Source: Eledone cirrhosa (lineage: Eukaryota). From it: DNA of 64,000 bases. Below, one piece after another: positions 5,738 to 61,830 of the stretch. Made by a program: the position numbers and the translations under genes. The notes beneath the pieces are model-generated. The model made no database searches. It had not been told where the DNA came from and saw only the letters and a program-made list of their open reading frames with translations. Location: NCBI GenBank assembly GCA_964016885.1, contig OZ024740.1:142042001-142106000 (forward strand). Direction: 5' to 3'. Position 1 is the first letter of the stretch. Every line of letters starts with the position of its first letter.

Positions 5738-7615
5738 TGAGTTGAGATGGAGGGTCTGTGGTTTTTCTCACATCTGGTTGGTCTCTGAATGTTACTTGTT
5801 TTATATGGAAAAAGTGGCTCGTAAGCCAGGTTTTTCGAGAAGTAATTTGATTGGTTTGTCAATAATTATAATAAATTTCGCGCCAGTTCGCGTTACAATA
5901 GTTCTTCAAATAAGAGAGAGGGGGGGGGGTTGTCACAGGTTGTTTTTTCATATATGAGTGTTTGAATTTCTTTTTACTTGAAAAAAGGAGGCTCACGAAG
6001 GCTTTTTTTGGTTGGTTATAAATGAAATTTGGCTGTCACGTGAACAAGTTTTCATTACATTTTTGCGCCCTTATTTGGAAAACTATTCTGTAGTCTTTAT
6101 AGTGAATGTTATGACAATGGAGAGATAGTGGTCAAGGGAAAAGGGATTGGGAGAAATGTTCTGGTTCAGTGAATATGGCCAGCTGTCAGAGTTCAGGTGT
6201 CAGAGTTCAGATTTTCTATTGAGACTGAAGATATGTGTTTATTTGTGTGCTTGTGTGTGTGTATGAGTGTGTGTGTGTGTATGTGTGTATTGGAAGATGA
6301 TTCTATTAGTAGAGATGGGGGAGGGAGTTGTGTGTGTGTGTATATGGGTGTTATGTGTGTGTGTGCGAGTATGTTAAGATGGAGAGAATATATATTTTGT
6401 GTGTGTGTATATATATATGTGTGTAGGAAAGTGGTTCTATTAGTAGAAATGGGGAGGGAGTTGTAGGTGTGGGGGTTGTTATGTGTGTGTATGGGTGTTA
6501 TGTGTGTGGGAGTATGGTTAGCATGTTAAGATGAAGAGAATATATATATATATATATTGTGTGTGTGTGTATGTGTGTGTGTAGGAAAGTGATTCCTTTA
6601 GTAGGAATATTTTTGAATGAACATATTTTCCTGACTTTTTCGTGTTTGCTGTTGTATTGCCAGTGCAAACGTATGTTAAGGTTTATTTAGTTCGGGTTTT
6701 TATTTTCTAAAGTAGAAGGTGTTATGTGTGTGTGTGTATGTCATATTGTGGTGTTGACATAATGTATATTAAACCTTATTTAATGTTGGTCTATATTTTT
6801 GAATAAACATATTTTCCTTATTTATTCGCATTTGTTCTGTTGTATTGTTAGCGCATACTCCCACACACATAACACCCATACACACACATAACAACCCCCA
6901 CACCTACAACTCCCTCCCCATTTCTACTAATAGAACCACTTTCCTACACACATATATATATACACACACACAAAATATATATTCTCTCTATCTTAACATA
7001 CTCGCACACACACACATAACACCCATATATACACACACACGCAACTCCCTCCCCCATCTCTACTAATAGAATCATCTTCCAATACACACATACACACACA
7101 CACACACAAGCACACAAATAAACACATCTTCAGTCTCAATAGAAAATCTGAACTCTGACACCTGAACTCTGACAGCTGGCCATATTCACTGAACCAGAAC
7201 ATTTCTCCCAATCCCTTTTCCCTTGACCACTATCTCTCCATTGTCATAACATTCACTATAAAGACTACAGAATAGTTTTCCAAATAAGGGCGCAAAAATG
7301 TAATGAAAACTTGTTCACGTGACAGCCAATTTCATTTATAACCAACCAAAAAAAAGCCTTCGTGAGCCTCCTTTTTTCAAGTAAAAAGAAATTCAAACAC
7401 TCATATATGAAAAAACAACCTGTGACAACCCCCCCTCTCTTATTTGAAGAACTATTGTAACGCGAACTGGCGCGAAATTTATTATAATTATTGACAAACC
7501 AATCAAATTACTTCTCGAAAAACCTGGCTTTCGAGCCACTTTTTCCATATAAAACAAGTAACATTCAGAGACCAACCAGATGTGAGAAAAACCACAGACC
7601 CTCCATCTCAACTCA

Positions 7616-33390: not shown

Positions 33391-34152
33391 TTACTCAATC
33401 TTCATCACTAGGACTCCACACTTATTAACACCAAATTCAATACATATATTATTGCTGAAAATACGGACAGTGTCAACAAGTACATCCAACTCCATCTCAC
33501 TCGTCCCAAAGAGTTTAAGATCATCCATGAAGAGGAGGTGGTTGATGGTAAGCTCTCCTTTTCCCAACTTGTATCCTGCTCTCACTTTTCGCAATATAAT
33601 GGTCAGGGGTATCAGGGCAAGGAGAAACAACAGAGGGGACAGACTATCTCCCTGGAAGATACCTCTCTTGATCTTCACGCCTCCCAAGGATTCTCCACCC
33701 GATGTTAATTCTGTTTCCCAGGACTTCATACTTTTGCTCAACAACTGTCTGATGTTATCTGCCACCTTGAAGATCTCTAGGCTTTTGGTTATCCAAGAAT
33801 GAGGTACCATGTCGAATGCCTTTTTGTAGTCTATCGATCCCATGGCAAGACCAGTGTGTCTCCTCTTGCAATTCCTGATTACCATCTTATCAATAAGTAG
33901 CTGGTCTTTTGTACCACGGGACTTCTTTAGGCATCCTTTCTCTTCGTCCGGTAACAAGTTGTTTGTGTGGAGGTTATGGTAGATTTCCTCAGATACAATG
34001 CTTGTTAATAGTTTCCACATTACGGATAGACATGTGATAGGTCTATAGTTGGTAACATCATTACCCTTGATTCGGTCTTTCATTACCAGGACTGTGGTAC
34101 CCTTTGTCAACCACTCTGGTACTTCACCCGACATCAAGCAGTCATTGAACAT
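33391..34152 (-). pseudogene. Reverse transcriptase domain of the R4/Dong-like LINE
   Basis: Motifs NYRPITCL, KAFD, QGDSLSP and FMDD. Confidence 0.9.
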
Positions 34153-35897
34153 GGTTGTCAGTTTTGGGTGGATGGATGTTATATTTTTAATCCAATACCC
34201 TGCACACCATCTGGGCCTGGTGATTTCCAGTTGGTTAGTTTTCTGGCCTGCCCTTTATGAGTTTCAACTGTGATACTTAAATCAGTTTGTTGGTGGTGTG
34301 CTTGTTCACTAATCTCCTTTTGTACTGTCTCAATCCACACTGCCTGACTATTATGTTCAACATCCTTCTCCCATATCACTCTCCAGAATGTCTTAGACTG
34401 TTCCGCCTCAAGGATCAAGTCGTTGCCTCTTTCTTTCCCTTCAAGCTGCCCAAACATCTTCTGGTTGTTGTCAAACATGCAGTTCTGTCTATACTGACTG
34501 ACTCCGTTCTCTTACCGCCTAATCTTTGCACTCTTTGCTACAATGCATTGCTTCAGTTCTTCTATGATCATATTTAACCTTTTCCTCCTAGTTTTGTACT
34601 TTATTTCCAGTCTATGTTTAGTGCCTATGTTTTGTAGTGTCCCATTCAGTAGGGACTCAAGCTTTCCAATGTCATTTATCATTTCCTTGATTTGACCATT
34701 CAGTCGTTTCTTCCACAAAGGTTCTGATCTTTCTTGTTTGTTGTTTCCTCTCTTTTTTATGCCAAGTAATTTCCTCACCGTATTTGCTGTTGCTTTGAGG
34801 ATATTGTTGCATTGGTGAAGGTTCCTCGCCTCAAGGTATGGGATGACTTGTTTACCTTAGCTGTTGTTTCTTTTAAATTTTTCCTGTCTACAAATCTTAG
34901 GTTCATAGGTTTCCCACTATCATTGTTCATTTCATCTACCACTAAGTTCAGGATATCAACCAAATCTTGTCCTAGCCCGTCAGCATTCATTTGCTCAATG
35001 GCCGCATCTTTGTTCTAGATGTTATTTATGTCAGCATTCAGATCAATGTTTGCTTCGGATGTTTCCTCCGGTCTCTCAACCTCTTCACCTTCATTTCCCA
35101 CTGGTTCGTTTGTCTGGCATACTCCACTCTCCATTTCCAACCTAATCTCTCTGCTCAGTTCCTCCAGTTCCAACTCTCTTATCCATCCATTAATACTTAT
35201 TACCCGAGCCTGCCCGGCCAATTTTTGTTCATCTAATTTAAATAGACCAATCTCGTTCCAGATGTTATGCATCCGTTTCCTATAGCCTTTTTCCTTGGGG
35301 TTACTCTTCAGGTAACATTGCATAACAGTTCTATTCAATTCTTTCGTCCAGTTGGTTCTTGTCCCTTTCCTTCTTCTTTCTCCTCCAACACCAGCAGTAT
35401 TTGGATGATAGCCAGGTCCCTGCTGCTGGGCCAAGGAGCACCTGCTGGGTGTGAGTCTGTCACATGACGTTCCAGTCTCCACTTACCGTTATTCGAAATG
35501 TTTAGGTTCGACATTTAAACACTCATATCGAGGATTGGTGAATATATGCTTACATAACCACCGGTGATTTCATCACTCCCAGTGATTTCATAACCCCCGG
35601 TGATTTTAGCGTGGCACCATCCCGCTGTAGACGAACATAAATAAACAAATAAATAGATAAAAACTTTTAAAAATAAACATAAGTTTGAATGTCTGACTTC
35701 GTATTTTTTTTGTTTGTTTTTTTCCTTTCCGTTTTTCGTTTTTCAAGGTCAGTAACATGGTTACTAGTGTTGTTGTTGCTGCTGCTGCTAAGGGAAGTAG
35801 GGGTTGTTGTGTTCAAAACTTTTGAAATTTGTGTTTGTTGTTGCGTTTGCTTCTGTCTGTGTTCTGTTCTATAATTTTTCGACTTGTTGCTTATCAT

Positions 35898-36180
35898 TTG
35901 GCAGTATCGGTAGTGAGTCGGACACCATGCCCTGAAGCACAGAGCTACGACCCCCTACGGTCCGAGTTCAAATCTCGCCGAGGTTAACCCCGCCCCTCAT
36001 CCCTAGGGGTCGATAAAATATAGTACCAGTAATACACTGGGAAATTGTTGGCCTTGTGCCAAAAGTAGAAACAATTATTATTTTTATTTTTCCTTTCATC
36101 CTTACGGGGCCGACAAAACAAAGCACCTGCAACACACCGGGGCAATTGCTGGCCCTGTGCCAAAAGTAGAAACAATTATT
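35898..36180 (+). mobile_element. tRNA-SINE with tandemly duplicated 3' half
   Basis: A full copy at 35898-36080 is followed by a second core and tail at 36090-36180. Confidence 0.8.
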
Positions 36181-36765
36181 ATTATTATATTATAGTTTAG
36201 ATTTGACATCGTTTAAACTAAACATTTTGAGAGAGTTTAGAGATACAACAACATAATTATTTTGGTGTTGTTGTTGTTGTTGTTAGCTGTTTGACCCAGT
36301 CACTAACCCAGTCTATTTATATCTTTTGATACCTTCCTCGCTTCTTTTCATGTGTAGCGGCACTACCACCATCCCTCTCTTAAATGGTGAGGGGATAGTG
36401 GTGGTAGCGCTGATGCAGTGGTGGCGGTGGTGATGGGATAGCAGTACTATAGGGATGGTGCTGGTTTGTATTTGGCTAAATTTTTTGTGGTAGTGGTGAT
36501 GGTGATGGTGGCGGCGGCGGTGGTGCTGTTGGTGGTGAAGTTATTTGGCTGTTGTTTTCTAGCCATTTTCTTTTCTGACTATAACATTTCTGGTACAAAA
36601 TTAAATATTAAATATTGGAGCCCTATGCCATAAAGTGATGCGTTGCCACTTCCTGAGAGTTAAGACTTATTTTTATTATTAATATTATTATTATTATTAT
36701 CAGTTTTCATTTAGGTTATTCTCCGATGTATCTATAAATACCAGTGCCCTGTGTTATATACGCAC

Positions 36766-38129: not shown

Positions 38130-38773
38130 GAATGAGGGGCTCATTCTAGTGACATGGCTTTAAAAATGAGGCTTGTTTGCATAATTGCAAACGAATCGAA
38201 TACGCCGAGGTTAACTTTGCCTTTCATCCTTACGGGGTCGATAACATAAAGTACCAGTATACCAGTAATGCACTGGGATAATTGCTGGCCTTGTGCCAAA
38301 AGTAGAAATAATTATTAATATTCGAAAAGCTCAGATTACATTTATTGTATTCAGCCATGTAGAGCGAACATTTTTTTTGTGTTATTTGAATATGGCAAAG
38401 CCAGCCATTCAACGCTCGTTACAGGAAATTGACTGGCCAGCCTGCTGATATGCAAATCTGGCTGATCACTGGATCTTCTAATATGCAGATCTGACTGATC
38501 AGCCAGTCTGCTAATATGCAAATCAGGCCAGTAACTGTATATTTTAGAAAATATATATTTTCACTAGCTCTGACAGTTGGCAGGTGACAGTGAACTGTAC
38601 TGATGAAGGGTATTACCCAGAAAGATTAGTGTCTGCAGTTCTGTTTACATGCCAACACAAGAGAAATAATGAAGGGTTCATTCTACTGACATGGCTTTAA
38701 AAATGAGGCTTGTTTGCATAAATACAAACTTATCGAATATTATTAATATTCGAAAAACTCAGATTACATTTAT
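38130..38773 (+). mobile_element. Partial tandem (pLTR/retrozyme-like) element with an HHR and a SINE fragment inserted at ~38203-38316
   Basis: The direct repeat ~38130-38345 (minus the SINE) recurs at ~38668-38773, and it ends at TA. Confidence 0.6.
38592..38641 (+). ncRNA. Type I hammerhead motif (canonical CUGAUGA), slightly degenerate
   Basis: gaactgta-CTGATGA-aggg(tatta)ccca-GAAA-gattagt-GTC-tgcagttc, with an 8-bp stem I. Confidence 0.68.
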
Positions 38774-38844: not shown

Positions 38845-39110
38845 AAGGGTTTTATTTACAGTATTAACAATTGTTTCACTGATTAAGTTGTCTAAAAATT
38901 GCTGAACACTTGAAGCTGTCGCATTCAATTTTAAATACGTTGTTAGCTTAACCAGATCATCATAGGGGACCATTTTATTCTTCACTCTTTCAATATTATT
39001 ACTCCAAGATAAACTTACATGGGGATTCAAGAGGACTCAAAGGGCAGCCACTTACGGAAACCTCTCCTTGAGTCGAACAATTACCTATAACGATATTTTG
39101 TTATCCCTTA
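38845..39110. mobile_element. Inverted pLTR fragment and tail of the 27413/37090 PLE family
   Basis: A minus-strand HHR remnant at 38859-38963 has GAAACAATTGTTAATACTG, a different long stem II and a lost 5' stem I. The plus-strand tail resembles 36903-37090. Confidence 0.65.
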
Positions 39111-39376
39111 TATATATATATATATATCCTAGATTGAATTATAAACTCAAAATAGTCTTTTACAATGAAGTAGCTCAAAGAAGGGAATCTTTCCGAGCCG
39201 TGTAATATAATTGGATATATGAGAGGGATGAACACAGATATAAGTATACATGTGCTCCAATTGCAAATGACCAAGTTAGCTAGGTTGACAAAATACTAAT
39301 TTAAAACAGAATGGTTTGTCTGACTCGATTTAAAGTAATAAATCAATAAAAAATAACAAACCTATATCGGGCCTTC

Positions 39377-39455
39377 GATACCCGGACAGACCAAAATCTG
39401 TTTCGCAAGAATTATTAAGTGAAAGCCAGAATTCCTGTGCTCATCTGCGGGTATC
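39377..39455 (-). ncRNA. Type I hammerhead (U4A), inverted copy
   Basis: Reverse complement of 39608-39686. Confidence 0.75.
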
Positions 39456-39607
39456 CAGGAAAATTCATACCTTTCACTTCATAAACCCAGCTGCTATTTT
39501 TAGCGGCATGAGTATGAGACGCGCTAGGCGTTGCGACATATGCGTTTATATCAGCACTTCGTCCAGTCTTTTTCCATCCTTTGAAGTGAAAGGTACGAAT
39601 TTTCCTG

Positions 39608-39686
39608 GATACCCGCAGATGAGCACAGGAATTCTGGCTTTCACTTAATAATTCTTGCGAAACAGATTTTGGTCTGTCCGGGTATC
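39608..39686 (+). ncRNA. Type I hammerhead (U4A core) with three good stems
   Basis: gatacccg-CAGATGA-gca.aggaatt..aattct.tgc-GAA-acaga(ttttgg)tctgt-C-cgggtatc. Confidence 0.8.
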
Positions 39687-40102
39687 GAAGGCTATTGCCC
39701 GATATAGGTGTGTTATTTTTATTGATTTATTACATTAAATCAAGTCAGGCAAACCATATTGTTTTAAATTAGTATTTTTTCAACCTAGCTAACTTGGTCA
39801 TTTGCAATTGGAACACATGTATACTTATATCTGTGTTCATCCCTCTCATATATCCAATTATATTACACGGCTCGGAAAGATTCCCTTCTTTGAGCTATTT
39901 GATTGTAAAATACTATTTTGAGTTTATAACTCAATCTAGGATATTCTCGGCTCCGTATGTAGAGCTAACATTAGTCTCATAAACCCAGCTTCTATTTTTA
40001 GCAGCATGAGTATGAGACGCGCTAGGCGCTACGACATGTGCGTTTATATCAGCACTTCGTCCAGTCTTAGATCCTTTGAAGTGAAAGCTGCGAATTTTCC
40101 TG

Positions 40103-40177
40103 GATACCCGCAGAAGAGCACAGGAATTCTAGCTTTCACTTAATAATCCTTGCGAAACAGATTTTGGTCTGTCCGGA
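40103..40177 (+). ncRNA. Type I hammerhead (U4A), second tandem copy with altered stem I 3' strand
   Basis: gatacccg-CAGAAGA-...-GAAACAGA..TCTGTC-cgg. Confidence 0.7.
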
Positions 40178-40424
40178 TCGCGAATCGAAGGCTATTGCCC
40201 GATATAGGTTTGTTATTTTTATTGATTTATTACTTTAAATCGAGTCAGGCAAACTATATTGTTTTAAATTAGTATTTGTTAAACCTAACTAACTTGGTCA
40301 TTTGCAATTGGAACACATGTATAGTTATATCTGTGTTCATCCCTCTCATATATCCAATTATATATATATATATATATATAAGTTAAAACAATGAAATAAC
40401 AAATCAAGTCATTAGATATATACA

Positions 40425-40564
40425 TCACTGCTTTACAATCGTTTCTAGATGATGATAATACATTGTATCTATACTCAGTTATTGATCTATGTAAGTTTAC
40501 TAACAATCAGATAAAGAGAATATTTACTTACATGCATATCACCAGCTGTTTTCAAAAGCAATAA
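40425..40564 (-). ncRNA. Type I hammerhead (U3-A8, 103-nt stem II), left-arm copy
   Basis: Reverse-complement copy of 43686-43825, with loop III GATT. Confidence 0.65.
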
Positions 40565-41323
40565 TAATTTTATTCAATAATAATTTTATTCAGAATTAGT
40601 AGTGTGTTAGTATCATGTCCTTATTTGGAGGTAGTTGAAGAACTAACGAATCAAATTGTTTTTTTCATATGGTGTTAAGATTATAAGTAATACACTTTAG
40701 TTGAGGTCATGACCCTTTGAAAGGAATGGTTGAAGGGTGTTAATAGTAGAATTGGCATAACAATCTATTGGGAGGACGGGGATTGTCAAACTGATAGTTG
40801 AATGTATCTGGTATAGTGAATTCAAAAGGAATGTCAAAATAAATGGTAACTAGTGTTGTATTGAGTTTTCAGGTGAATATAAATTAAGGTTATGGCTAGG
40901 AGAGATAGTTTATTAAAAGATGAAAATTATAATAAGATAATGAAATACAGTAATGCGATAATATACAACTTAAGCAACACAATATAGTATGGTGCGGTAA
41001 ATTGCACTTAGTATAATATAGCATATTATACGCTCTAAAATACTATCAAGTATGTTTATGCATAAATAATGAAACTAAGATAAATACATGTTGGCATAGT
41101 TAAAACACATAAATTTCATAGATTACAAAGTGCATATATCCACACTATATATAGAGAGAGGTACAGTTATATTGATATCCAACCAAAAATATACATACGT
41201 ACAAATAGATGCAAACCTAAATACACATTTACACGTATGCATATAATCATATACATACATATCCTTACATATCTATATCCACACATACACATCTATATAC
41301 ATCTATATATATATATATATACA

Positions 41324-41395
<72 letters not shown>

Positions 41396-41804
41396 TCATA
41401 CACCAATACTCACATATACACACACACAAACACACACACATATATATATATACACACATATATATATATACACATACACATACACACATACATATACAAG
41501 TATATATATATATATATATACATATACACAGACATAAATATATATACATATATATATATAAATATACACACACATAAATATATTTCCATATCATACATAA
41601 ATATATATTTACTCATGCAATTACGGGTGGTTGTGTATCCTGTTGCCTTTAGTCATTAACGCATAAATCTAAGGAAGCTAAAACATTAACAGGCAAAAAT
41701 AAGCATGAATGCATATAATTAGGGGAACGAGGTGCCAATAAATGTTACTCTATACGGAATTATAGTGAGTTGCTATTTAAAATATTTAATTATGTTTATA
41801 GTAT

Positions 41805-42790
41805 TTAAATAGGTTTATAGTATTTAAATGTTTTTCGTATACGGTGATTACAAACTATGATGAATTCCTGTCTTTTATTTAATAAATCGTCCTTATATTT
41901 AGTAATTTCCAAGATCTCTCCTGAACATAATCTGCATTCCCTCCTGTTCCCAAGATATGGAGTTTTTTGTAGAATGGTGTTCCACGATAACTTGAAATCT
42001 ATTTTTTTCTTTTGATAATTATTTACCGCTTCAGCTAAAGATCTGGTGTTTGCTAGTTTAGTATTGTTGAAACTACTAGAGTGTGCGTAAAATCTTTTCT
42101 TAAATGTGTTTGATATAGATCCTATATATGTTTTGTTGCAGTCTGTAGTAGACACAGTGCATTTATATATTACATTATTAATAAAACAGTTTCCATTTAA
42201 GGGGCAAATGCTTCTATTTCTGGAATTACAGCCATACGTAAGATGGTTTTTGGGGTGCCTATACTATTCTCATTTATCCTTGAGCTATTCCTATTGTAAT
42301 TAATGATAGCAGGAGAATGAAGGTTGCTTTGTGGGTGGTTTGGTGCTAGAGTTGTATTGTGATTTTGTGTTCTGTTGTTTTTGTGTTGGTGATTTGGGTG
42401 GTTGTGTTTGCTAGGTTGAAGGATTGCATTATTTGCCTTTTTAAAAGGTGCAGTCCTATTTAAATTATGTTGCGTTGGTGTAGTCATATTATTTTAAAGT
42501 TTATAAATGTTGTAGTTGCTTATTTTTTGTTTGAGATTGCTTGATGTAGAGTATGAGAATTTAACTGTATATTTGTTAAATATTTGGTGGTATCTGTGGT
42601 TTGGTGGAAAATGTTTATGTAGTATTTCAAATAATTTTTGGGGGATTTGTCCAATAGTTTGCAGGTTGAAGGGTGCGTTGTACCATGTTATGTTTCTTTT
42701 GTGGTTTTTAGTTAAGTTTTTATTATCACTTATATTATTCTTTTGTGTTCTAGAAGAATTCCTATGGTCGGTGTCCTTATTTGTGGTGTT
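41805..42790 (-). pseudogene. PLE linker + GIY-YIG endonuclease remnant
   Basis: RNITWYNAPFN..KHFPPNHRYHQIFNKYTVKFSYST; CN..CPLNGNCFINNVIYKCTV..TYIGSISNTFKKRFYAH; CRLCSGE..LLNKRQE..CNH. Confidence 0.9.
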
Positions 42791-42812
42791 TGGTAAATAT
42801 ATAAATATATAT

Positions 42813-42869
<57 letters not shown>

Positions 42870-42927
42870 ATGTATATATGTGTGTGCATATATGTACATG
42901 TATGTATATGTATATATGTATGTATGA

Positions 42928-42966
<39 letters not shown>

Positions 42967-43685
42967 GGTATAGATGTGTATGTGTGGATATAGATATGTA
43001 TGGATATGTATGTATATGATTATATGCATACGTGTAAATGTGTATTTAGGTTTGCATCTATTTGTACGTATGTATATTTTTGGTTGGATATCAATATAGC
43101 TGTACCTCTCTCTATATATAGTGTGGATATATGCACTTTGTAAACTATGAAATTTATGTGTTTTAACTATGCCAACATGTATTTATCTTAGTTTCATTAT
43201 TTATGCATAAACATACTTGATAGTATTTTAGAGCGTATAATATGCTATATTATACTAAGTGCAATTTACCGCACCATACTATATTGTGTTGCTTAAGTTG
43301 TATATTATCGCATTACTGTATTTCATTATCTTATTATAATTTTCATCTTTTAATAAACTATCTCTCCTAGCCATAACCTTAATTTATATTCACCTGAAAA
43401 CTCAATACAACACTAATCACCATTTATTTTGACATTCCTTTTAAATTCACTATACCAGATACATTCAACTATCAGTTTGACAATCCCTTTCCTCCTAATA
43501 GATTTTTATGCCAATTCTACTATTAACACCCTTCAACCATTCCTTTCAAAGGGTCATGACCTCAACTAAAGTGTATTACTTATAATCTTAACACCATATG
43601 AAAAAAACAATTTGATTCGTTAGTTCTTCAACTACCTCCAAATAAGGACATGATACTAACACACTACTAATTCTGAATAAAATTA

Positions 43686-43825
43686 TTATTGCTTTTGAAA
43701 ACAGCTGGTGATATGCATGTAAGTAAATATACTCTTTATCTGATAGTTTGTAAACTTACATAGATCAATAACTGAGTATAGATACAATGTATTATCATCA
43801 TCTAGAAACGATCGTAAAGCAGTGA
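43686..43825 (+). ncRNA. Type I hammerhead (U3-A8 core, 103-nt stem II, palindromic stem III)
   Basis: ttattgctt-TTGAAAA-[tggtgata...tatcatca; tatactc/gagtata]-GAAAC-gatc-GTA-aagcagtga, with a 9-bp stem I. Confidence 0.75.
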
Positions 43826-43998
43826 AGTATATCTCTAATGACTTGATTTGTTATTTCATTGTTTTAACTTATATCATGACTCTGTTTTCCTTTTAATGTT
43901 TTATTGTTTTCCGAGATTTATCTTAACCTACATTTTAAACATATGGATTACATCGAGTTCCTCATGCAGAATAGACCCCACAACTTACAGTGGATACC

Positions 43999-44046
<48 letters not shown>

Positions 44047-58342: not shown

Positions 58343-60795
58343 CATGATGGCTGCCCCCTCGTTATCGAGTATGGCCATTGCACGAGAAAAAAAAAACAAA
58401 AAAAAAAAATAATAATAATAATAATAATAACAATAATAATAACGACAACAACAACAACAACAATATACATATATATATATACACACACGCACGCACATAA
58501 ACATATCTATACACACACACAGGATAGCAATTAACAGTGCTGCGATCGAATGTGGCTTTTTAGCCCAGCCAATGATCTAAAATGTTTTGCACAGATTCGG
58601 GAATAGCCGGCTGTGGTTGGAGTTCATGTACTTTTGCATGTCGTTTGAGTCCTCCTTCTGATTTACATTCTCTACCACATGCTTGGCAAGCATGATGAGT
58701 AGCATCTCCAACAGCAGCCTGGTAGTCAACCACTGGTCTTACTTTATGACTTTCGATTCCAGCTTTGCTTAGGCAGAGTCTCGCAGAGACGCTGGATGTC
58801 AGCACCATAGGAGGACCTTCGCCGTCTGGAAGTGCAACAGCAATGCCCTTCCTCACATACCGCTTTACTTTCTTGTATGCGATTCGAGATGCCTCAAAGG
58901 CAACTTCCCCCTCATATACAGTCTTTCTCCATATATTACGATCAGCAACAACATTTTCCCATGTATCAGCAGAGATGTTAGCGTCTTTCAAAGAGGTTTT
59001 CAAGGAATCCTTATACCTCTTTTTAGGTTTATGTGGCGGTCGTTTTCCTTTAACTAACTCTCCATAAAAGAGTTGTTTTGGTATTCTAGAATCCTTCACC
59101 CTGGCACGGTGACCACTCCAACGGAGTCGTTGCTTAAGCACAAGAGCTTCTATACTGTCACACATAGAGCTTTCCAAAATCTCGACATCACTGATGTGGT
59201 CCCTCCTGTGAACGCCATCGATCCGTCTGAGACACATCTGATGGAAACGCTCCAATTGCTTAAGGTGGTGTCGATATGTAACCCAGGTCTCGCAGGCATA
59301 AAAAGAGAGCACACATGCCTTGTACACCTTTACCTTTGTCTTCTTGCATATGTCTCGCCGACCCCAGAGTCGCCTTTCTAGCTTTCCGAAAGCATCACTT
59401 GATTTCCTAATCCTGAGTGGGATTTCACTATCAAGGTTGCTGTATCGATTGACAGTGCTTCCCAGGTAGACAAACTGATCAACCACTCAAAATCGTTTAC
59501 CATACACATATATATTTGGTTCACTGTACTGCTTACCAGGGGCAGGTTGGTACATGCCAACGGTTTTCTTGAGACTGACAGTCAATCCTAGGGCAGTGCA
59601 AGGATCAGAAAATGCATTCAAAATGTGCTGCATATCACACTCTGTGTGCACTACAAGATCGCAATCATCTGCATACAAGAGATCTCTTATGATTGATGTA
59701 AATACTTTTGCATTTGCAGCAAAGCGCCTGATGTTAAATATGCTGCCTGAGGATCGATATCGGATGTAAACACCATGCTCGCAATTCCTGAATGCATTAT
59801 AGAAAACCATTGCAAAAAATATGGCAAACAGGGTCGGTGCTGGAATATCCCATGTTTCACTCCATTTTTTACTCAGATAGGCTCCGACATGTTACCTCTG
59901 ACATTAACCCAAGCCTTCATGTCGTCATGGAAAGACCTAACTAAATCAAGGAACTTATCAGGGCAACCAATTTTCTGTAGAACCTTCTATAATGCATTTC
60001 TGTTAACAGTATCGAAAGCTTTTATTAGATCGACAAAAACCTGATACAGATCCAAACCTTGTTCCATGCACTTCTCCTGAAGTTGTCTAGCTGAGAAGAT
60101 CATATCATTAGTGCCGCGTCCAGCACGAAAACCAGATTGACTTTCAGGAAGAACACAATCTGCAATGTGTGTCAGCAGACGGTCCAGAAGCACCCTACAT
60201 AAAACTTTCCCTACGACAGAAAGCAATGATATACCTCTGTAGTTTCCACAATCATTCCTGTTACCATTTCCCTTGTACAAGACCACCATTACTGCATCTC
60301 TCCAGTCCCCAGGTACGGATTCATTAGCCCATATCCTTCCAAACAAAGACTGAAGATGTTGCAGGAGTCTCTCACCACCATATTGTAGGAGTTCAGCATG
60401 TATGCCATCCATACCTGGAGACCTTCCACTGTTCAGCTTCGAGATAGCCACTGCAACCTCCACAAGCGTCGGAGGTTCTGCGAGAGCTACTTTCACAGGA
60501 CTTTTTGGAAGGAGATTGAGGAAATCTTCATTGACGACAGACGGCTTATTCAAAAGATCATCAAAGTACTCTCGACACGTTCGTAGAATTCCTTGTGAGT
60601 CACGATGAAATTCTTTGCCATCCTTGCTGCGAAGAGGTGTCACCAGAAAAGAAGACGGTCCATAAACTTCACGCAAGAGACTGTACAACAGCTTTGTGTT
60701 ATTGGAATCTGACGCAGTTTGTATCTCATCAGCCTTCGAACTCCACCACTGATCCTTCATCTGAAAAAGACTCCGCCTAACACATGATTTCGCAT
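58343..60795 (-). mobile_element. RTE-clade LINE, 5'-truncated (RT to 3' end), frameshifted
   Basis: SPGMDGIHAELL, CGNYRGISLLS, LPESQSGFRAGR, FVDLIKAFDTV, LLYADD, FVYLGS, RLRWSGH, PKQLFYGEL. (CATA)n lies on both sides. Confidence 0.92.
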
Positions 60796-60844
60796 ACATA
60801 CATACATACATAGATACATACGTACATACATACATACATACTTG

Positions 60845-61830
60845 ATCGTAAGCAGAGGCCTAACATCAGTCCAGAGAGCATTTGAGTGTTGCATCATACG
60901 CCTCCGACAACATTTACGAACCTCGAAGCGTAGGAGCTCATCTATCGAGTAAGTCTATCTACGAGGCAGATAAGATCATGAGAGTTGGGATGGAACTCCT
61001 TGAAAGATATTTCCTGCATGTTAATAAAAAAACTGACACCCAGGGAAATTGCCTAGCAGTACCGCAGTGAATCCATGGATGAAAAACTGCATGCGTATCA
61101 GAAAAAAATCATGCATGGATATGTTGTCAGGAATCTCCAGAGTGATAGTAATATAGAGTCTGCACTTGTCACATCTAGGTGTTTTGCCTACATCCCTATC
61201 TCTTTTATGAATCACGTATTTTGTGTTGATTTCTTGTTCTTCGATTGCATAAGCAGCTGTCCAAAGATGTCACGGTGGTACTATCTACCTATGAGGCATG
61301 ATATAGTGGCCAAAACACTGTACAATGCAATCCGTAGAAAAGATAACCCGACATTAAAAGCTACAGCAATGTGGAAGTCATACATATACATAATATGAAA
61401 GAGTACTGGTGGAATGTTCCAGTAAAAATCCCAATAAAATAGGCATAATAGACCAGATACTCCACCCTGACTATACCTTCAGATTTATGCCTGTGACTGG
61501 GGCACTGGGATATGTTAGTAATTGCCTCAATACAAATCTTGAGAAGTTAGGCTTCACAGGAACAGAAAGAACACAACTAGTTAGGAAATTACAAGTACAA
61601 TCCATTAATGGAACAGTAAAAATATGTAAAACATTCCAAAAGTTTTGCATCTAACAACTGCATATACACATGTACACATACAACTCAAAACATACACATC
61701 CATATCTTCACATGCATGCATACATAATCTACCTAGTTGATGTTGTGTAAATTCCATTAGAAACCGACTCTCTCTCTCTATTGGGAAAAAATTTGTGAAA
61801 TTATAAAACCAGAAGAACATACATGTGTGA
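60845..61830 (+). mobile_element. R4/Dong-like LINE 3' fragment with internal inversion/deletions
   Basis: Matches 63170-64000. About 61158-61245 is inverted relative to 63545-63635. Confidence 0.75.

Follow-up and report, generated by a model that had tools for sequence, protein, structure and literature searches.

Can a repeat that encodes no protein be spread by Penelope-like retrotransposons (PLEs), and does it pass through a circular RNA on the way? A locus in a 64,000-nt stretch of the Eledone cirrhosa genome (contig OZ024740.1, positions 142,042,001 to 142,106,000; hereafter the window) raises both questions. An initial annotation proposed a retrozyme that was inserted as a multimer by rolling reverse transcription of a circular RNA of about 495 nt. 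Our preferred reading, to which we give a probability of roughly 0.55, is that the element is a decayed copy of a family without open reading frames (ORFs), carrying Penelope-type ends and copied in trans from a unit-length RNA that is predicted to be cut by a hammerhead and to be circular. The family is likely a protein-less parasite of PLEs.

Anatomy of the locus

Self-alignment resolved the locus into an inverted arm of 358 bp followed by a direct part that holds 1.79 copies of a 495-bp unit, all flanked by (TA)n, much as first described (an inverted partial copy and about 1.8 direct units). Unit positions are numbered from q1 = 39679, and E1 and E2 are the two end sites treated below.

39109..39127, no strand: left (TA)n target tract, running into the outer end of the inverted arm
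39124..39481, minus strand: inverted arm, q399-495 plus q1-266; outer end at E2, with the 81-nt tail at 39124-39204
39479..39678, plus strand: 5'-truncated unit, q299-495 (self-alignment)
39679..40173, plus strand: full 495-nt site-to-site unit, the predicted monomer
40174..40363, plus strand: final partial unit, q1-185; outer end at E1, without the tail
40359..40380, no strand: right (TA)n target tract; beyond it lies a separate PLE insertion with an ORF

Read along the window, the inverted arm runs from q266 to q1 and then from q495 to q399, with 94.5% identity to the direct copy. It meets the direct part at a 3-nt microhomology (39479-39481). The direct part (39479-40363) comprises q299-495, q1-495 and q1-185, in all 885 nt at 92.6% in self-alignment. 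The extent first given, 39128..40360, was thus roughly right, with ends that reach 39124 and 40363 and merge with the (TA)n. The ORF scan of the window found no stop-to-stop frame of at least 150 aa overlapping the element, in agreement with its description as ORF-less, and the 64-kb window gave no Rfam match at gathering score. Of 186 body positions, 12 distinguish the middle unit from its upstream and inverted counterparts, and 3 of these 12 are known family variants, so that mixed templates or conversion are possible at this locus.

The surroundings are rich in other mobile DNA. The adjoining ORF-bearing PLE insertion (40376-44002) has inverted arms and a tail of about 128 nt and is not homologous to the unit; its broken endonuclease-region frame (41811-42691, minus strand) yields a protein piece that draws 59761 first-look candidates. 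Further PLE endonuclease-region remnants lie at 1332-2395 and 6772-6873 (minus), and at 33394-34254 and 59990-60859 (minus) broken multi-frame elements hold remnants of reverse transcriptase (RVT_1). A short dispersed repeat at 36006-36186 and 38211-38322, possibly SINE-like, also flanks many of the fetched loci. The host genome measures 3.0 Gb and is (TA)n-rich.

Three dispersed families without ORFs

The 495-bp unit (family A) drew 3237 first-look candidates in the genome, and 40 that were scored matched at 86-93% over the unit; given this dispersed family, the window element is not a chance resemblance. Narrower queries gave 889 candidates for the ribozyme part and 2846 for the 3' part. From 90 family-A loci, 72 were analysed after 16 overlaps and L011 and L086 were dropped; the searches rank by likeness to the unit, and the arm sample is biased to long copies.

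Two sister families were recovered from PLE loci. Family B, found through a diverged covariance-model motif, has a 559-bp unit that is 66% identical and colinear to A, with 3967 candidates and 44 analysed loci (from 60, less 16 overlaps). Family C, found through a match in another PLE locus, has a 556-bp unit, 2233 candidates and 30 loci; its copies are 97-100% alike and the family is very young. The three are 62-69% identical to each other, all of them ORF-less, colinear and of different ages. The unit body contains a conserved ATG, from which the family alignments revealed no conserved reading frame.

L142:1656-2214: family B reference copy; core UUGAUAA, long stem III
L250:920-1475: family C reference copy; core UUGAUAU, long stem III and a far larger loop II

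In all three families the longest arms hold about 2 units, and single loci reach 3-4. Only 8 of 101 family-A arms cross the cleavage site twice, so the long multimers looked for on the initial annotation's advice are rare.

Hammerhead-like motifs

The element carries three hammerhead-like motifs, one more than the two sites predicted at the outset, the third being an intact-stemmed copy in the inverted arm.

39596..39686, plus strand: motif 1; core 39616-39622, CAGAUGA (U4A); predicted cut after 39678
39596-39607 with 39626-39634, plus strand: predicted pseudoknot of motif 1
39608-39615/39679-39686, plus strand: stem I of motif 1, 8 bp
39623-39625/39656-39658, plus strand: stem II of motif 1, with GAAA at 39659-39662
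40098..40192, plus strand: motif 2; core CAGAAGA (U4A); predicted cut after 40173
39371..39460, minus strand: motif 3, in the inverted arm; core CAGAUGA, all 8 bp of stem I intact; predicted cut 39385/39384

The two GUC triplets, with their last letters at 39678 and 40173 and a spacing of 495 nt, are exactly where cleavage had been placed, and the U4A core was correctly called in both direct motifs. The three solid stems first described held for stem I and stem III (6 bp) of motif 1. They did not hold for its stem II, which is missing from the minimum-energy fold (its 3 bp are kept across the sister families), nor for stem I of motif 2, where a 5-nt insertion breaks the helix and 3 contiguous bp remain. 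In a pseudoknot-blind model the hammerhead fold lies 4.6-8.4 kcal/mol (motif 1) and 4.0-19.2 kcal/mol (motif 2) above the minimum, which counts against our preferred reading.

Among 75 family-A motifs (77 less 2 partial or duplicate rows) the core is conserved except at positions 7 and 4, the latter being A in 68, U in 6 and C in 1. Family A thereby departs from the canonical core (CUGANGA or its U3-A8 covariant), with A4 in 68/75. The core of family B is of an accepted type, UUGANAA in 38/42, and in family C, the youngest, position 9 is U in 24/25. No pair of the 21 changed on both sides within family A alone, a further point against our reading. In the three-family alignment 4 of 23 pairs changed on both sides, with 95.3% of cells paired: three compensated pairs fall in stem I, C3-G8 becomes U3-A8, and stem II has 3 bp. 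The stretch that follows stem II is paired to the flank immediately 5' of stem I, and one of these pairs is compensated across A-C. The shuffle control for covariation overstates this support, because only three related families enter it.

The compensatory pairs across A, B and C support a type I hammerhead fold. G5, G8/A8, GAAA, GUC and all stems are retained, with compensation, across families that are 62-69% identical, and the fold is under selection. The hammerhead is probably pseudoknotted, loop II pairing with the 5' flank. An inhibitory role of this pairing is also possible, since it extends into a hairpin that the pseudoknot-blind fold prefers over stem I. A 7-bp stem II was considered and rejected in favor of 3 bp plus the pseudoknot, as it showed no two-sided change within A and was not kept in B and C.

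Whether the families cleave is uncertain in view of the U4A and A9U cores. A mutational scan recorded low activity when CUGA was altered at single positions (PMC9901934). A natural U4C hammerhead is described as weak in vitro yet sufficient in vivo. Searches of the hammerhead and core-variant literature retrieved no published test of U4A. Self-cleavage and a circular monomer RNA of family A are predictions, the circularised monomer having a stable predicted fold (z of about -4). In three runs from one sample, in which the contigs were of unrecorded type, element and flanks were covered alike, a result uninformative on expression. Reverse-transcription PCR across the GUC junction, or with divergent primers, cannot discriminate a circle here, because the circle junction is identical to genomic tandem sequence.

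Fixed ends, tail and target

Permuted starts, which the initial annotation had suggested looking for, were not found. Outer ends are instead fixed at E1 or E2, where 101 of 152 arm ends in family A and 62 of 72 in family B fall.

Family A: E1 at q185, E2 at q266; spacing 81 nt
Family B: E1 at q172, E2 at q257; spacing 85 nt
Family C: E1 at q156, E2 at q237; spacing 81 nt
39864..39944, plus strand: 81-nt tail, between E1 (39863) and E2 (39944)
39870..39895, plus strand: GCUC...GAGC stem-loop 3' of E1
39950..39965, plus strand: GCUC...GAGC stem-loop 3' of E2

The two sites are used in a strikingly regular way. In two-armed insertions with both ends fixed, E1 was paired with E2 in 28/29 cases in family A and 18/18 in family B, as well as in 18/18 in family C, whose loci were selected on E2. 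One of each end was thus used in 64 of 65 two-armed insertions, L088 being the sole exception, where equal independent use would predict about half (p of about 3e-13, A and B). At least one end lies off E1 and E2 in other two-armed loci, 14 of them in A, 8 in B and 2 in C. The window locus follows the rule, with E2 on its left and E1 on its right. Ends are followed by ATAT in 71/95 cases in A and 51/60 in B, indicating a target that is AT-rich or (TA)n. At L015, L019 and L132, where the target is not pure (TA)n, target-site duplications are visible and short, about 8-13 bp.

A GCUC...GAGC stem-loop lies within 1-7 nt 3' of all six sites (E1 and E2 in A, B and C) and, with a gap of up to 30 nt allowed, nowhere else in the three units. 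Across the six sites it is intact in 75/100, 38/50, 66/73, 42/48, 42/42 and 15/17 aligned copies.

The 5' ends are scattered, with no pile-up at the cleavage site, which 65 of 101 family-A arms cross. A small cluster of family-A 5' ends (7/101) at q387-392 (window 40065-40070) could mark a transcript start, a structure-related stop or an alignment artefact.

PLE hallmarks, according to two reports (PMC8557442, PMC3846280), are an inverted 5'-truncated arm, a tail and (TA)n targeting, the tail being a 30-40-bp extension at one end. The E1-E2 interval is such a Penelope-type 'tail'. The biochemistry of an anole PLE places the tail between two internal starts of reverse transcription (RT), both target strands being cut and extended, and its protein is predicted to be a dimer (PMC11167929). 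We infer that E1 and E2 are RT start sites. ORF-bearing PLEs of the host genome have the same two-end design with different tails. Together, the fixed ends, inverted arm and (TA)n target uphold the proposal that a hammerhead-bearing tandem was mobilised in PLE style.

A local tandem duplication, or a satellite of a dead fragment formed without an RNA step, has in its favor the local re-duplication seen at a few loci (L022, L068). We nonetheless consider it very improbable as an account of the element, because copies lie on many contigs, with variable 5' truncation, some short target-site duplications and paired fixed ends in three families that already contradict it.

Agreement of units within insertions

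Consecutive units of an insertion tend to resemble each other. Their subfamily alleles agree at 178 of 215 informative sites in family B, compared with 14.8% between loci, and at 80 of 194 in the older family A, compared with 9.5%. Divergence in family C is 0.8-1.1% within a locus versus 1.8%, and its haplotypes agree within loci except in L234 and L248, which hold two each. Discordances common to several loci show no position bias in family B (11 in the same direction, 10 opposite) and a mild excess in family A (81 versus 59), which may come from ascertainment by likeness to the query.

Such sharing is what rolling reverse transcription predicts. The homogenised units fit a unit-length template that is copied repeatedly, whether a circle or a jump from end to start, and fit plain read-through poorly; the allele sharing accommodates circle and jump alike. 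One circle does not suffice for every locus, given the two haplotypes in L234 and L248 and the three variant sites at the window locus.

These data bear on an alternative that keeps the same parasite of PLEs but takes as template a linear read-through RNA that stays uncleaved, or several linear RNAs connected by template jumps, the hammerhead being slow, protein-assisted or structural and the circle unneeded. Several observations favor it: non-canonical cores dominate two of the three successful families, long multimers are rare, L234 and L248 are of mixed haplotype, and the 5' ends at q387-392 could represent a transcript start. In vitro, moreover, insertion by the anole PLE is independent of ribozyme cleavage, with unprocessed RNA as the main substrate (PMC11167929), which we count against our own reading. 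Read-through, however, would let units diverge and pass on position-specific alleles, whereas the alleles are homogenised, and the G5, G8/A8, GAAA and GUC elements and stems have been kept with compensation. We therefore rank the linear template as possible but clearly less probable than a unit-length circular one.

Two further signals were followed. A third arm segment copied from a different template was suggested by pooled values of 4.1% versus 2.2%, and was rejected when the paired test failed (7/13, p=0.22 in B; 4/8 in A) and the body proved more variable anyway. At q104 of family C a G/A discordance outside CpG recurs within insertions (L243, L247, L248, L249, L255). It was considered as the mark of a heterodimer source; as it recurs on four haplotype backgrounds, a hotspot is likelier, possibly one of RT error.

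Search for a parent and a driver

The genome contains many GIY-YIG PLEs with a CX4CXXC linker, autonomous endonuclease-bearing (EN+) PLEs among them. This linker is assigned to Neptune/Nematis in PMC8557442, and 'Neptune-type' is used here as a motif call. In none of 80 PLE loci (30+20+30), a shallow sample of 10596 and 59761 first-look candidates, did the unit serve as a pseudo-LTR (pLTR) of an autonomous PLE. The covariance model found no autonomous parent in 50 PLE loci and the window. Local alignments of the unit with 13 downstream regions and with the neighboring PLE end, and of the tail with one Neptune-type tail, stayed within shuffle range. Upstream of the ribozyme, 72 A, 44 B and 30 C loci had the unit again, (TA)n, the inverted arm or unrelated flank, with no shared ORF, and the RT-GIY-YIG ORF that marks an autonomous PLE between its repeats was absent. 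Copies always joined to an RT-encoding PLE body, which the initial annotation would have taken as the sign of a mere pLTR, were not what the loci of the three families showed.

It may still be asked whether an autonomous PLE outside the sample has this unit as its pseudo-LTR, or left it behind as a remnant after internal deletion. Its end structure is the same as that of the ORF-bearing PLEs of the host, and the 80 loci come from a far larger pool through searches that rank by unit likeness. The consistent lack of a shared upstream ORF and the persistence of three colinear ORF-less families of differing age make this origin improbable in our judgement.

PLE protein matches lie near 14 of 116 A and B loci. 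Direct fusions joined the families to three different Neptune-type PLE families.

L262:1114-3415, minus strand: family A fusion
L263:2681-4220: family B fusion
L245:1020-1712: family C fusion

Two of the 14 are same-strand fusions, which run at L068 through a 6-nt microhomology into mid-RT and at L152, from E2, into the endonuclease region of a PLE; in the third, at L245, family C is joined to a Neptune-type pLTR piece. These fusions may be template switches or nested insertions with deletions and serve as leads only. The three point to a Neptune-type PLE as the likely driver.

Loci of the type of L091, L100, L102 and L031 represent two Neptune-type autonomous families with minimal hammerhead-like motifs, a U3-A8 core and a palindromic loop III; in L091 two pLTRs enclose an open frame of 938 aa.

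Proposed mechanism and its significance

In our preferred reading, that of a unit-length and predicted circular template, a tandem source copy would first be transcribed. The type I hammerhead, probably stabilised by the pseudoknot and with covariation support for its fold, is predicted to release a 495-nt monomer, which would then be ligated. A PLE enzyme, likely of Neptune type, would nick both strands of the (TA)n target found at the insertions, and E1 and E2 would each serve as the internal start of one cDNA, immediately upstream of a GCUC/GAGC stem-loop. The fixed ends, pairing rule and stem-loops are seen in the copies, and we infer their role from the anole PLE biochemistry. The cDNAs would run upstream past the cleavage site, in some cases more than once, end at varied positions and be joined head-to-head by microhomology, giving the inverted arm and partial tandem observed. 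The window locus itself is probably a poor source of monomers, as its second ribozyme is damaged.

We tentatively suggest that the duplicated stem-loop docks the halves of an RT-endonuclease dimer, giving the two target strands separate priming sites, always one of each, and that the hammerhead has persisted on a rolling template as a switch that is pseudoknotted and detuned (U4A, A9U). If the dimer-docking idea were true, a 500-nt RNA would be a complete portable cargo signal for two-ended insertion by PLEs.

The element itself is no surprise, since its class and the dependence of that class on PLEs are already in print. The added value is mechanistic, as the field has yet to settle how PLEs build tailed copies in tandem and inverted form. 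Three ORF-less families of graded age offer a natural data set on the start-site rule, the duplicated stem-loop, homogenised units and non-canonical cores, and copies of the very young family C lend themselves to testing the need for cleavage and circularisation.

Comparison with known systems

In the main-text literature searched, we found no description of family A or of the one-of-each rule. PMC8557442 was the sole match for cephalopod or octopus retrozymes or PLE hammerheads, and a search for twin priming in the Penelope literature returned one unrelated review only. The idea that PLE tandems are copied from a circular template was put forward in 2014 (PMC4209133).

Non-LTR retrozymes are described (Cervera and de la Pena 2020, PMC7229834) as tandem repeats of 150-450 bp, expressed as circles of 170-400 nt, in mussels among others. 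Retrozyme families of 51-972 bp, related to pLTRs, appear in a recent preprint (Li et al. 2026, bioRxiv 10.64898/2026.07.22.740005), in which 1 of 9 tested Xenopus retrozyme dimers cleaved and 8 did not. The unit had been thought large for its class; against these 51-972 bp and the roughly 500 bp of the cricket repeat pDo500, 495 bp is ordinary. Like animal non-LTR retrozymes, family A is an ORF-less tandem of published size with a type I hammerhead fold and low GC that coexists with PLEs. Unlike them, it mostly has U4A, a 3-bp stem II and a predicted pseudoknot, and its insertions are mostly of 1-2 units with full PLE ends rather than arrays. No homologous autonomous pLTR was found for family A in the shallow sample of 80 PLE loci, and its expression and circular RNA are putative.

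The Dolichopoda repeat pDo500 (PMC2837043) shares a unit of about 500 bp and a hammerhead under structural constraint. It differs in that it forms a long satellite array, its core is almost invariant and its cleavage has been demonstrated, whereas family A is dispersed and its core drifts. The pseudoknotted hammerheads of Perreault 2011 (PMC3088659) also have a short stem II, with a loop that pairs at stem I, and the U3-A8 covariant core, the last present in the sister families; the family pseudoknot, in contrast, is predicted, and its pairing could belong to an inhibitory hairpin.

PLE insertions (Arkhipova 2013, PMC3846280; Craig 2021, PMC8557442; Frangieh 2024, PMC11167929) resemble ours in their partial tandem, inverted 5'-truncated arm, one-ended tail, (TA)n target and ribozyme upstream of two internal starts. 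Ours differ in lacking an ORF and in a tail of 81-85 nt against the usual 30-40, and they go beyond known PLE insertions in the one-of-each use of ends quantified here (64/65) and in having the same stem-loop 3' of each site. Every tested feature of a non-autonomous element mobilised by PLEs was present: fixed 3' ends, an optional tail, 5' truncation, tandem plus inverted arm, (TA)n and EN+ PLEs in the genome. As family A lacks the canonical core and its RNA features are predicted, we file it as a variant of the retrozyme class: the element is a retrozyme-like non-autonomous PLE.
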